DNA of 60,445 nucleotides, counting the filler, from Hausera hauseri (taxonomy: Eukaryota), in assembly GCA_046269625.1 (NCBI GenBank). It is 10 parts of 10 records of this genome, joined end to end, with 100 filler letters (N's around TTAATTAATTAA, not from the genome) between each part and the next. Parts side by side here need not be neighbours in the genome. Positions count along the whole stretch, not along the records: positions 41,025 to 51,064 come from JBJURY010248848.1; positions 51,165 to 55,556 come from JBJURY010604666.1; 8 more parts are not named here. One strand, 5' to 3'. Under the pieces are notes generated by a model, which saw nothing but the letters and a program-made list of their open reading frames with translations, was not told where the DNA came from and searched no databases. Shown piece after piece: positions 41,025 to 51,489 of this stretch. The position numbers and the translations under genes are program-made. Numbering within the stretch: the first letter of the stretch is position 1; each line of letters starts with the position of its first letter.

Positions 41025-43080
41025 CTAAAAACAAAGGAGAAAAGTTACTTCCTATATCAACAGCAAGAATTAATATCGTTGGACGGAATGGAATGTATGC
41101 TGAGACGATCTCGTAACATATTTCATTGCGGACTAATGCACGGACATTCTTCAATAATCAAACCAACAACCCTTCCGATTCCAATGAATTTGGAACGCCA
41201 GCATTGCAAGCAGGCCAGGGAAACCGGAAGATTAAAATGGGATAGTATGGAACTAGAGATGCAACCAGGAAAGATAATTAGGGTATATAAAGTAGTGGTT
41301 GGAGGGTTAGACATGCATAATGGACATCGTAATGGAGCAGAGTACTACACCGGAAAAGGATTAGAAGCAAATGTAGTAGTCGTGGATTTCTACGAATCAG
41401 AGATGCGATCACAAAAGGTAATGTGCCATAGTGTCACTAAGTTATACACTGAGAATCAAAAATGTCATTTACAAGACGGAACCTGTGCTTTTAGAAGCTC
41501 TGTTATAATATGGCAACCTTTCTGCGGAAGAAACTGTAACTTTATAAAAATTAAGGAATTGAAATTTAACGAAACTACCGGAAAACGATATGTAGATAAA
41601 TCTGATACCAATTCAAGGACACGCGAGGACGTAACAGAACATCCTACACCTACTATATTAATCTCTGACCAGCATGGACTACAATTCATTAAAAAGGAAA
41701 TGATCTATCGTTGTGAGATGGTGATGTTCGCCACCAGCTATGAAGCATTCTTCGTCGCAGAAACGGAAATAAATGCGAAAACTTACAAGCTAGAAACACA
41801 GGATATTCGAATTGAGAATTACCTAAAAAACAGAGACGATTACTTTTATTACAAATGGCAAATCGGAATAACCGAATTATATCACAAAATGATAACAAAT
41901 GATTGCAAATTGGATATGCAAATCATGAGGACAAAACTGGCTCCTATTCATGCTAACTGTGAGTTAGCTTCACTAATAGTTAACATGAGAGAAGGAATTT
42001 TCGGTCGAGTTACTGGTGACGTACGATTGACTTATGAATGTGAGAAGAGACGTACCAATCAACGTTGAAGAAAAACGTTGCATACAGGAACTTCCCGTTA
42101 TTTACCATAATACTCCGAGATTAGCCACGCCGCTTACTAGAGTGTTATTAGACAATTCAAAGGAACCAACAAACCTTAAAGATTGTAAAGCAAGTTTAGG
42201 AGAACCCAAGTTTAGATGTAGTGAAACGGATTTGGTTAGTCTGCCTAATGGAAGTGTTACTGCAGCTTCAAATAAATTAACAGAAACAAATCTCGCAAAA
42301 GAAGTTACCGACGATAAGTTTCAAGATACCTCGTCAAAGGGCATATATAGGCCTAAGGAAATTGAAGCCTTTAGACAATTTCTCGCTTTTCCGCGACAGC
42401 GGACACACGAATTAAATGGAGCCATGGCCTCCGTTGTAGACGACACTCGATATCAAGCTAAATGGGAATCATTGCTTGGCGTAAACCAATACCAGCGAGT
42501 AACCACAGAAATACTCTACAAAATTTGGGGACGATTTCTGATTTTTGGACAAGCCGCATCTGGATTTTTAACGATATATTTCCTAATACAAATGATTAAA
42601 GCCGTCATCCAAGCATTAATAAATGGGTGTGAAATATTTACAATGACAGGATTTTCATGTAAAATACTGACTGCAATCATAACCCCTTTTGGAAAGTTCT
42701 TGAAAGCATACAAAGAGAATAGACGAAAATCGGACATAGAATGCCATGTCATTTATTATAATCGTAAACGAAAAGGAAGGCCTATGTTCTTATACCTGCG
42801 GAAATTCACAAAACCTAATACACAAAGAAATAATTCAGATGATGACGAGCCTAAGGGAGAAGTACTTTCAAGAACAGACAGACATAAGACGTATTCCGTC
42901 ATTAAAGCACCATTGCCTATGCTACCTCCCACTGCTCCAGTCTATGAAGACTGTGACAAGCGATCAATGAGCTCATATCAGACAGAAATCTATAAAAGGA
43001 CAATTAGTTTAGAAGACCCGTACAAAGGAACGAAACGTTATGGAGTCCTACGGAAAATGTTATCGGCAGACCATGGATGA
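41025..43080 (+). pseudogene. env: Chuvirus-like (class III, gB-related) envelope glycoprotein, 5'-truncated, one frameshift near 42045
   Basis: ECMLRRSRNIFHCGLMHGHSS, CHLQDGTC..IIWQ..C, LYHKMITNDCKLD, GIFGRVTGD..YEC, CIQELPV..PLTRVL, KGIY..FP, WGRFLIFGQAASGFL plus TM segment follow the chuvirus-type G motif series. Confidence 0.85.
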
Positions 43081-43380
43081 CCCCAGAATATTGTATTCCC
43101 CGAGAGAACCTCGGAATATAGAGACTAAATCGCCTGTCCGGGAAAATCCAAGGTTAAAAACCTTCCGGAATATAGAACCACATACTAACAATCGAGAACC
43201 ATTAATTAGTACTCATGAAGTGGAAGAATTGAACATCCAAAACAACGAATTATATCCAAACGGAGAACTAAGACGATTATCGGAAAACATAGTATCCTCC
43301 CGGAAATCCGAATCAACGGACATAAAATATCGGCAACTAAACGCCCAAAAGCTGTATCAAACTGTTTAAGAACAGTAATA

Positions 43381-43779
43381 GAAGAGAGACCCTTCGCCAA
43401 AATCATTATCGAAAACTGGGAAGTTTATGCATTAAACGATACAGGTTCTGAGATGTCTTACATTAAAAATAATTCAGTACCTCAAACACTAAAAGAACAA
43501 TTATACCCACCATCTACAAAAAACCCAGGAAATACAGGAGCTTTTGACCAAATGTCAAAACCAATGTTCAAATGGAACCCAGAAGTTCAAATAGTTGGAC
43601 AGTTTTTCTATCATGAGTTTGCAGTTATGGAACAATTAACTGACGACGTAGTTTTAGGATATGGTGTAATGAAAAGACTGCCAAATATAGCAATTGACTT
43701 ACAAACAGGAAAATTAAAAGAAATCAGACTAAGTAAAGGCGTAAAAAACGCTAAGGAAAGGAAATTTGGAGAAGTGTGA
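43381..43779 (+). CDS. Retropepsin (aspartic protease) domain
   Basis: RPFAKIIIENWEVYALNDTGSEMSYI ... DVVLGYGVM. Confidence 0.85.
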   Translation, partial: EERPFAKIIIENWEVYALNDTGSEMSYIKNNSVPQTLKEQLYPPSTKNPGNTGAFDQMSKPMFKWNPEVQIVGQFFYHEFAVMEQLTDDVVLGYGVMKRLPNIAIDLQTGKLKEIRLSKGVKNAKERKFGEV

Positions 43780-49500: not shown

Positions 49501-50106
49501 GCGAAATTCCACAAATCCCGAAAAACTGAACTTTAGACACAGACGGCATTTCCGACCATACTCTACCCCCAGAAACATCGAGGCTATCGAACGATTGAAC
49601 TATCAGATAACCATACAAAGGTTCAACTCTAAGGCACTCAGTGATAAATCCAAGTCAGGCAATAGACCTTATGTGAACTCCAATTCACAAACTTCCACAA
49701 AAACAATAGAAACCCAAATAAATTTTAAGATACCAGAAGTCCCACGAAAGTATCAGACGAAAGGAACAGATTCCCAGGAAAAGAAAACCGAAGCCGCAAT
49801 ATTTGCGAACAAAAGGAATATTCCTCTATGAATATTTGTTTAAGAATAAAAACAAAACTGTAAAATCGGACACAGACGCAAACAAAGCCCAGAGAGCGAA
49901 AAATCGAACGAATGAAAGAGACGCAGAATCTGTAACTGAGCAATTCGAGGAAACGCCATCTACATCAACAAGCAGTCAAAATTCCGCCGAAACAGGACAT
50001 AAGAACTTCACAAATGGAGTTAAACAACAAATTACAGAAATAAATGTTTCGAAAAAAAGACGCCCAAGACAACATAATCTTTGCCACGGCCAAGGATCAT
50101 CCTTGA

Positions 50107-50760
50107 ATGCTAGTAATCACTGAATATTATAGCCGTAAAAAATCAGAGGCCGCGTTCTTCGTCAAGACCCTACCAGCGCGAGACCTTTACGAGAACACCT
50201 ATATTTGGGAAAGTCCGAAGATAGGGAAATATATTACACCGGTTTTCCAGTCAAAAAGAAATGGTAAATTGATAGTACCGGTAGACAAAACGGTGAAAGC
50301 ATTCTTCAAGAAGCAATACCAGAAATATCAGTTAATAGGAGAGATTCCCGATTTAGATCGAGATGCTATCAGTGATTGGACATTGGTACCGGTAGGATGC
50401 GACCCGAGGGAAAGTTACATAAATGTCAGACAGAAAAGGATCTATGGATATTTGTACTAAGACGGAGATGGTCTTGTGTTTGAACCCATTGAGCTTACAA
50501 TACGAGTGGATTTCGATGACGAAAAATGGGAAAAAGAGGAAAACGAGTGTCCCATATGCGAAGCAGACCTTAAACAGGGATATGTAATTTTAAACAATTT
50601 AGATTATCGGCACAAATACTGTCGGGACTGCTTGGAAAAATGGACGTTAGATAATGGCAAGACCACATGTCCAGCATGCAGAGCCGACCCAAATAATCTA
50701 AAACATTTTTCGAACGGTAGCTATACCCGCGTGGTACGCATAAAACCCTACCACAGTTAA
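50107..50760 (+). pseudogene. Accessory ORF ending in a RING finger
   Basis: ORFs 50107-50460 and 50476-50760 share a frame; CPICEADL..DYRHKYCRDCLEKW..TTCPACRA is RING-HC-like with the third Cys replaced by Tyr. Confidence 0.75.
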
Positions 50761-51489
50761 ACCTTGGAAACGAATGTCCGAGAAGGTCTACCAAATACCA
50801 GTTCGAAATCAAGCTTACGTCAAAGGATGAACCTCCTAAGACGACCACGTTACGGCGGCACCTCTTCTGACGCGATGGGCGCATCCGAGGATGCCGTTCA
50901 GGGAGAAGAGATGTTGTAAAGATATTGCTAGGAAAGACACTAAGACCCGTTTGCGACACTGTCATATTTTCAGGTCTTAGTGCAGCAGCTGAAACAATTA
51001 AAACGAAGAAGAAGCATTAATTGTAAATTTTGAATGGATATAAAAGTAGGGGAAAAATGCGCATNNNNNNNNNNNNNNNNNNNNNNNNNNNNNNNNNNNN
51101 NNNNNNNNTTAATTAATTAANNNNNNNNNNNNNNNNNNNNNNNNNNNNNNNNNNNNNNNNNNNNAGCAGATCAGGAGAAGAATATTCAGCTTTGAGTTAT
51201 TACTTGGAACATCTGAACCAAATAATAACTTGAGGAGATTATCTGTAGGTTTTAAAACATGTTTTCTAACATAAATAGGTTGAAAAATGACATAATTCCC
51301 TTTATATCACAAACTGATGTGGTGTGCTCTGTTTTTAATTTCACACATCTTTGATCTCAGCAGTGGTGGAAACTGTTCCGCTAACAGCAGAACTAGCTTC
51401 ATATTAGATGTCTTCTAACTTTGGAAACTGTTAGCGAACCGGTTTGCTTTCACTAAATATGGTTCCACTTTTAATTCTACTAAAAAAAA

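Follow-up and report, generated by a model that had tools for sequence, protein, structure and literature searches.

Burro, a planarian retroelement, carries Env in frame between gag and pol (PMC6431247), and in Burro1 a RING domain sits within the B-IAP (RING-BIR) region (PMC13465017). Errantiviruses of the GAG-ENV-POL order with a glycoprotein B (gB)-type env are described from Platyhelminthes, Bryozoa, and Nematoda (Chary and Hayashi, PMC13524379). The available text of that report calls their entry mechanism unknown, since herpes simplex virus (HSV) needs other glycoproteins. Here we describe an element of this general kind from Hausera hauseri (assembly GCA_046269625.1), which, judging by the likeness of the env to Schmidtea elements, is probably a triclad flatworm. 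The window, i.e. the whole stretch of DNA that was analysed, is 60,445 nt long and consists of ten contigs joined by spacers. The element occupies contig 8 (positions 41025–51064), and coordinates are those of the window unless another locus is named.

Contig 8 appears to be the decayed remnant of a Ty3/Gypsy element that exists in many copies. Its unbroken relatives encode env, protease (PR), reverse transcriptase (RT), RNase H (RH), integrase (IN), and an FN3 membrane protein in one frame, a chain predicted to cross the endoplasmic reticulum (ER) membrane four times, which would yield a gB fusogen together with an FN3 protein that likely serves attachment. We put the probability of this reading at roughly 0.6.

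Pfam was run on 29 stop-to-stop pieces of contig 8. The matches are all on the plus strand, in the order env, PR, RT, RNase H, IN, FN3-type, RNase_T, and RING, and thus bear out the series of modules that an initial annotation of this DNA had proposed. Every module is decayed, with stops or frameshifts. The ectodomain of a gB/chuvirus-type (class III) env (41025–42700, +; PF24664) is truncated at its 5′ end by the contig end, about 50 residues into the mature protein. Two pieces match the Monjiviricetes fusion glycoprotein (41025–42065, E-value = 3e-20; 42031–43077, E-value = 4e-29); a single frameshift lies at approximately 42031–42065 and a transmembrane domain (TM) at approximately 42535–42625. 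The env cytoplasmic tail and the linker between env and PR (42701–43366, +) are frameshifted. An aspartyl protease with a DTG motif follows (43219–43776, +; RVP, E-value = 3e-4), and then a region between PR and RT (43780–44178, +). RT (YLDD), RNase H, and integrase (H2C2, core, and C-terminal domain) are found at 44329–46789 (+), interrupted by stops and frameshifts; Pfam gives RVT_1 with an E-value of 3e-28 and also matches RT_RNaseH, the integrase zinc finger (Integrase_H2C2), and the integrase core. PR-RT-RH-IN is the Ty3/Gypsy order.

The unbroken relatives were recovered through the exonuclease alone. A metagenome scan with an alignment of active exonucleases gave 106 pattern matches, 10 of which were confirmed as loci; the two with 10 kb of upstream sequence are L001 and L003. 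Each shows one unbroken frame open at its 5′ end, of 3,012 aa in L001 and 3,207 aa in L003. The order in both frames is a hydrophobic signal, the PF24664 env (E-value = 9e-84 and 5e-94, respectively), a TM, proteases, RT, RH, IN, a signal-like segment, two FN3 units, and a TM. Env and PR are in one frame here, and the exonuclease open reading frame (ORF) comes next behind the polyprotein. A hydropathy scan of the L001 polyprotein displays exactly four hydrophobic segments; in L003 the first signal and the signal behind IN are discernible by eye and fall below the hydropathy threshold.

Contig 8 shares with these loci the order env, PR, RT, RH-IN, at 25–31% identity in env, 42–45% in RT, and 34–35% in RH-IN. 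Its env keeps 11 of the 12 covered ectodomain cysteines that are common to L001 and L003. No solved structure was matched by sequence with the L003 env. The region between PR and RT, aligned by tblastn, is conserved in L001 and L003; it is dUTPase-like only by position and by eye, and gave no Pfam match. L003 (1–9621) also has three aspartyl-protease stretches, where L001 has two, and an extra signal-FN3-TM cassette (aa ~1366–1552) between the second and third of these. With this cassette, six membrane crossings are predicted for L003.

The second membrane protein forms the C-terminal part of the polyprotein. In contig 8 it covers 46793–48248 (+) and continues the frame of the IN C-terminus as far as 47143, with no break from IN through a signal-like segment at 46886–46945. 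The best FN3 unit is at 47793–48068 and a TM at 48133–48198. Pfam gives only weak FN3-type matches (47721–48068); however, an HMM built from six FN3-like units of L001, L003, and a third locus, L004, matches contig 8 with an E-value of 1.4e-8. Among 1,305 window pieces this HMM yields three matches with an E-value below 1e-4, one each in contigs 1, 8, and 3, and the next is at 0.56.

Contig 1 carries a sister element. Its pol (2074–4526, −), with RT-RH-IN in one frame with stops, has 72.7% nt identity to that of contig 8 across 2,930 nt by blastn. The IN C-terminus, a signal, three FN3-like units, and a TM then lie in a single frame interrupted by three stops (269–1915, −). At the protein level the matches to contig 8 run on in the same order through the membrane protein into the accessory gene start, so the repeated order claimed earlier for this contig stands. 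An AlphaFold2 model of the contig-1 FN3 unit (pLDDT 84) has seven strands and an FN3 fold; Foldseek gives FN3 matches with TM-scores up to 0.74, the best including IL-22R1, adnectins, and fibronectin, and a viral structure library gave weak FN3-like matches only. Between contigs 1 and 8, synonymous differences per site (pS) exceed nonsynonymous ones (pN) in RT, RH-IN, the signal, the FN3 region (0.84 vs 0.39), and the accessory start, and thus all of these modules were under coding constraint, with the caveat that local alignment biases the comparison. The FN3 type I membrane protein behind IN is conserved in four elements, contigs 1 and 8, L001, and L003.

Among 120 listed database matches to this pol, with identities of 31–41%, the few that are named are gypsy-like and the others are unnamed. 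The contig-1 pol scores 492 and 488 bits against L001 and L003, and at most 452 bits against any of the 120. An IQ-TREE pol tree of 62 rows groups the window elements with L001 and L003 (SH-aLRT 93), which is suggestive only; 58 of the 120 database matches were used, after nine with short alignments had been removed and a score cut-off applied to the others.

If the hydrophobic segments act as predicted, signal 1 would send gB into the ER lumen and the gB TM would bring the chain back to the cytosol. PR-RT-RH-IN would then form a cytosolic loop between two membrane proteins. Signal 2, behind integrase, would send the FN3 repeats into the lumen, where the last TM would anchor them. Signal peptidase and the element protease would free the parts, and Pol may travel to budding sites as a cytoplasmic extension of Env. 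The FN3 protein may bind target cells, or may position or trigger gB. It is thus a candidate partner for the gB fusogen, and it is reasonable to suppose that one protein would serve fusion and the other attachment.

The main rival is the decoy-receptor reading. The polyprotein would be the same, and the FN3 protein would be host-modulating cargo, a decoy receptor or an adhesion mimic on the producing cell, with no role in entry. The presence of IL-22R1 among the top structural matches fits such a role, and so does the variable number of FN3 units, with two in L001, three in contig 1, at least three in L004, and the extra cassette of L003; Burro, too, has many host-modulating domains in the available account (PMC6431247). 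However, the position, signal, and TM of the FN3 protein are kept in contigs 1 and 8, L001, and L003 over a distance of about 38% pol identity, and its placement in the polyprotein would tie its amount to that of Env and Pol. We judge cargo to be the less likely reading and retain the FN3 protein as a candidate attachment protein.

Behind the polyprotein lies a single broken accessory gene (48409–50919, +; ~830 aa). It gives four co-linear high-scoring segment pairs, with 34–45% identity, to an unbroken protein, P0001, of 870 aa, encoded on one 16,242-nt contig. The 998-aa frame of contig 3, used as a query in full HMMER, found 13 proteins, which all match residues 464–828 of that frame; P0001 is the best of them. 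The P0001 alignment covers 48442–50916 of contig 8, including the RING and the last codons, which overlap the polypurine tract. When the contig-3 frame and the N-terminal piece of env were used as queries in word-indexed homolog searches, neither gave a match; three viral-contig scans and a first metagenome scan likewise gave no relatives. For P0001 the ESM atlas gave no usable match.

The accessory gene combines two enzyme folds with further domains. An oxygenase/cupin-like barrel (~48442–48880, +) is followed by a DEDDh exonuclease fold with replaced catalytic residues (~48980–49470, +), a low-complexity linker, an accessory domain of unassigned type (50086–50457, +; P0001 alignment), and a RING (50542–50682, +; Pfam E-value = 9e-8 in piece 50461–50757). 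The RNase_T Pfam match in contig 8 is weak (48708–49283, E-value = 0.03). The P0001 model is mostly confident over residues ~58–410 and poor after, and its Foldseek matches are ISG20L2, ISG20, and cupins. Its exonuclease domain compares with ISG20 at Z = 18.5 (rmsd 2.1, 156 aligned), and its upstream domain with 2-oxoglutarate (2OG) oxygenases at Z of about 9–9.7 (Ofd2: Z = 9.7, rmsd 4.6, 139 aligned).

Neither fold has its catalytic residues in this lineage. Of 15 aligned rows, 9 retain the D-E-D-H-D residues, the L loci among them, and in the other 6, which include contig 3 and P0001, these residues are replaced or absent; in contig 8 the first DEDDh motifs are missing, so none of these three sequences has the residues of an active DEDDh enzyme. 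In the barrel, an N, a K, and an R are invariant, and a single His is conserved in 14 of the 15 rows. No conserved HxD/E...H metal triad of 2OG-Fe(II) dioxygenases is found in the 15 rows, though the fold is similar. Since the folds persist without catalytic residues, the accessory protein likely binds RNA. In the contig-8 branch the RING would likely give ubiquitin-ligase activity against a host factor.

Small ORFs, coiled-coil by eye, are found beside the exonuclease gene in several loci (L001:9207–9872, L003:11571–12005, L004:1773–3058, and L005:588–1166), and are duplicated in L004; all five have a YAG 0–4 nt before the ATG.

A second rival is that the element falls within the Burro/GYPSM1 or Schmidtea errantivirus families as an ordinary representative, its FN3 and exonuclease modules being already annotated in Repbase or in papers. 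The Env-PR-RT-RH-IN order is that of Burro (PMC6431247), and Burro1 has a RING. Env appears akin to the gB-type envs of Schmidtea: of the motifs in the L001, L003, and contig-8 envs, YQES has 4 of its 4 occurrences in supplement file 3 of PMC13524379 on Schmidtea rows, AMRF, FHCG, and YHCG 1 of 1 each, and AFQT 2 of 4, a kinship drawn from short motifs and by-eye likeness rather than from a computed alignment. Placement of env before pol, put forward earlier as new, is thus already in print for both Burro (PMC6431247) and the GAG-ENV-POL gB elements (PMC13524379).

However, the Burro text of PMC6431247 (section 7) names gag, AIR1, Smc, MATH, SUMO, BCL2, BIR, and ankyrin, with no FN3 membrane protein behind IN and no barrel-DEDDh gene, and the main text of PMC13524379 has no mention of fibronectin, polyprotein, accessory, exonuclease, or RING. 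The RING of Burro1 is inside the B-IAP region, whereas no BIR was matched by Pfam beside the RING in the contig 8 pieces or in P0001. None of the domains named for Burro was detected in the sequences compared, which are partial elements with the 5′ half missing; for BIR and ankyrin this covers the contig 8 pieces, P0001, and the L001 and L003 polyproteins. A region before env in L001 and L003, where Burro has SUMO-like and BCL2-like domains, is by eye suggestive of BCL2-like and ubiquitin-like folds; Pfam, PDB, and the ESM atlas gave no support, the atlas yielding weak, low-recognition matches for L003. No description of an FN3 type I membrane protein behind integrase was found in the text of PMC6431247 and PMC13524379 available to us or in a targeted literature search, which returned one paper, on Mucor. 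The architecture is thus partly published, and the FN3 membrane protein fused behind integrase is the part for which no earlier description was found. That the modules are already annotated elsewhere we regard as improbable.

The accessory gene is likely expressed from a spliced message. A splice-acceptor motif, consisting of a branch-like TTAAC, a pyrimidine tract, and CAG (48368–48392, +), ends 16 nt before the accessory ATG. When the motif is defined as a YAG before the ATG with pyrimidines at 8 or more of 11 positions, 9 of 13 accessory starts have it; for the ATGs of this DNA overall the figure is 56 of 1,409, and of five further small ORFs one qualifies. Upstream of it there is a conserved non-coding hairpin with a predicted 14-bp stem (48280–48323, +), present in contigs 1 and 8. 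The hairpin block has 75% identity between these contigs over 129 nt, while synonymous sites differ by 64–84%. Folding z-scores for the two contigs are −4.6 and −3.3, and the stem displays no covariation between the two. In contig 1 the hairpin, acceptor motif, and accessory gene start are at 2–241 (−), identified by blastn and by motif. A donor-like GTAAGT lies 4 nt past the acceptor AG at 48393–48402 and at approximately 119–128 in contig 1, and the N-terminal translations of P0001 and of another protein, P0002, echo this motif.

Trans-splicing occurs in flatworms, and the accessory ORFs could receive a spliced leader in place of an exon joined in cis at a 5′ donor. Of 18 accessory starts, 13 have a YAG 0–2 nt upstream of the ATG, whereas for ATGs in general this holds for 135 of 1,409. 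In the three window copies, however, the ATG is 6–16 nt from the acceptor AG, and a cis donor may lie in the 5′ end that the sequences compared lack. A spliced leader is thus a doubtful explanation here.

The 3′ end of the element is marked by a polypurine tract (PPT) at 50900–50911 (+), which overlaps the last accessory codons; P0001 ends in the matching peptide. The PPT is followed by TGTT (50900–50915), and the likely start of a 3′ long terminal repeat (LTR) extends from 50912 to 51064 (+), where it is cut by the contig end. Its placement follows the pattern of contigs 3 and 10, where an LTR start likewise comes behind the PPT. In contig 3 a PPT and LTR start (13110–13125, +) show the same PPT followed by TGTT, as in contig 10, where a C-terminal accessory domain of the contig-3 type, the PPT (56358–56369), and an LTR start are found at 55657–56373 (+). 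The initial annotation rightly reported the shared PPT and LTR start of contigs 3 and 10; it overlooked those of contig 8 itself. A purine run followed by TGTTAC at L001:13822–13840, 2.5 kb behind the exonuclease gene, is a possible PPT and LTR start.

Contigs 3 and 10 had also been assigned to the same lineage as contig 8, and this part does not hold. Contig 3 has a 998-aa open frame (9936–12932, +) with an FN3 unit and a TM, identified by the FN3 HMM and HMMER, and then the accessory part, which displays an acceptor motif, an ATG at 10821, the barrel, a dead DEDDh, a different C-terminal domain, and no RING. There is no blastn match with contig 8, the likeness being at the protein level only, in the exonuclease (E-value = 5e-10) and one FN3 unit. 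Contig 3 represents a different, distant family, without a RING and with a C-terminal domain unrelated to that of P0001 (E-value = 0.18). Contig 10 matches contig 3 only (50% over 132 aa). The contig-3 accessory gene (10584–12949) is unbroken; one 2,366-nt contig of public run X1 is identical to it and pieces from run X2 are nearly so, and X1 may be the run from which the assembly derives.

The second membrane protein, the exonuclease, and the RING protein had been taken as three separate genes, and in contig 8 the pieces do fall in several frames. In the unbroken relatives, however, there is one polyprotein and one accessory protein: in L001 and L003 Pol runs on in frame into the membrane protein, which forms its C-terminus, IN to TM lie in a single frame in contig 1 as well, and the exonuclease and RING are co-linear with P0001 in a single gene. 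The separate-gene layout is thus largely refuted and has very little probability left.

Six public runs contain contig-3 words, and four of these were compared with contig 8. Contigs matching contig 8 in the four runs number 29,665, 1,892, 376, and 387, mostly diverged, and point to a large repeat family behind contig 8. When contig 8 is divided into 30 bins, all 30 are covered in runs X1 and X2. Depth of read contigs is uneven along contigs 8 and 3; it cannot rank the parts, and rarity of the accessory cassette is not argued from it. Contigs of runs X1, X2, and X4 bridge the junctions from IN to the signal (46523–46945), from the signal to the ectodomain (46861–47351 and 46842–47094), from the TM to the hairpin (48156–48334), and from the linker to the following domain (49706–50280). 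None of the contigs listed from the four runs spans the whole contig 8 stretch or bridges the env tail to PR, so for contig 8 the env-PR order is taken from L001 and L003. For a high-copy repeat in a fragmented assembly, with these gaps in public coverage, it is conceivable that contig 8 is an assembly chimera or that unrelated elements came to be nested in it by chance. Either is exceedingly unlikely, as the order recurs independently in contig 1, P0001, L001, and L003 and four kinds of junction are bridged. It was proposed earlier that this is a Ty3/Gypsy lineage of long (>11 kb), multi-copy elements that bear an env, encode two membrane proteins in all, and have an accessory region at the 3′ end; L001, L003, P0001, and the run contigs support this.

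Several points weigh against the single membrane-threaded polyprotein and its proposed functions. The single frame in contig 8 is drawn from the relatives, since its own frame is interrupted both between env and PR and within the FN3 region. No gag is found in the window or in L001 and L003, and contig 8, L001, and L003 all miss the 5′ end. The pol group of window elements with L001 and L003 has a long branch (1.88) and composition bias, and local alignment inflates the pN/pS contrast of contigs 1 and 8. A match to IL-22R1, a cytokine receptor, suits a decoy as well as an adhesin, and the extra L003 cassette suggests a mobile cargo module. The published gB errantiviruses, with three ORFs and no partner in the available text (PMC13524379), suggest that gB may work alone. 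The acceptor counts are not independent, with about six groups among the 10 loci, and the start codons of contigs 1 and 3 were chosen with the acceptor motif in view.

The fullest form of the proposal is tentative, and we hold it to be somewhat less than an even prospect. A flatworm lineage of enveloped Ty3/Gypsy elements would enter cells by means of two proteins, a fusogen of the class III gB type and an FN3 attachment/trigger protein, both cut from one membrane-threaded polyprotein with Pol as a cytosolic loop. It would also carry spliced accessory genes in which RNA-enzyme folds have turned into binding modules, with a RING ubiquitin ligase in one branch.

Other contigs of the window display further features. 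Positions 24192–35745 contain 99 CCCTAA hexamers (TTAGGG-type telomeric repeat) and TBP and WW exons. Within them, the stretch 24332–24511 weakly resembles the start of the L003 env (E-value = 0.004). Two decayed Polinton-type protein-primed DNA polymerase genes, 69.5% alike at the nt level, are at 14382–19661 and 35846–40924. An adenain-like protease fragment (Pfam E-value = 0.035) and Polinton-like-looking ORFs lie at 58602–60160, 3′ of the contig-10 LTR start.

Among known systems, Troyka was considered and rejected: it has CG..CG termini and no env by the definition in PMC12440569, whereas here TG follows the PPT and env is present. Anakin, a BEL/Pao element, likewise has a chuvirus/gB-type glycoprotein in an LTR element (PMC7642597, available text), in another superfamily and host; the pol of contig 8 is of the Ty3/Gypsy type by Pfam and database matches. 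In the bdelloid rotifer elements Juno/Vesta and the Terminons, the DEDDy ORF3 likewise adds an exonuclease of the DEDD superfamily to the 3′ part of a gypsy-like element (PMC5408684, in the part available). Here the exonuclease is a DEDDh (ISG20-like) domain fused to an oxygenase-like barrel and dead in the window lineage; it is RING-fused in contig 8 and occurs alongside env rather than replacing it. The accessory folds are like those of human ISG20 and ISG20L2 (PDB 1wlj, 7yw5) and of the 2OG oxygenases Ofd2 and ALKBH6, whose DEDDh residues and metal triad are not kept here. Active and dead accessory exonucleases occur side by side, which offers a comparison of nuclease and pseudo-enzyme within mobile elements.

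The likeness to Burro/GYPSM1, as far as the text of PMC6431247 describes them, extends to a mononegavirus-like fusion glycoprotein Env in frame upstream of PR-(dUTPase-like)-RT-RH-IN, to accessory ORFs, and to many copies. Env is in frame with pol in L001 and L003, and presumably was so in contig 8. Burro is given as more than 30 kb in length, compared with 16–17 kb for the longest contigs considered here. On the layout described here, Pol is predicted to be produced and packaged in an unusual manner, tethered between two membrane proteins and not made as a Gag-Pol fusion.

With the errantivirus group Platyhelminthes_C1a the element shares an HSV/gB-type env before pol (PMC13524379). In the available text of that report no LTR is called for any of the 6 Schmidtea elements, and thus their 3′ ends were perhaps not reached. 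The gB errantiviruses are annotated there with three ORFs only and no partner protein; the FN3 protein, a conserved type I membrane protein made in one chain with gB, offers a concrete candidate for such a partner, and could be tested in planarians if the Schmidtea elements also carry it.

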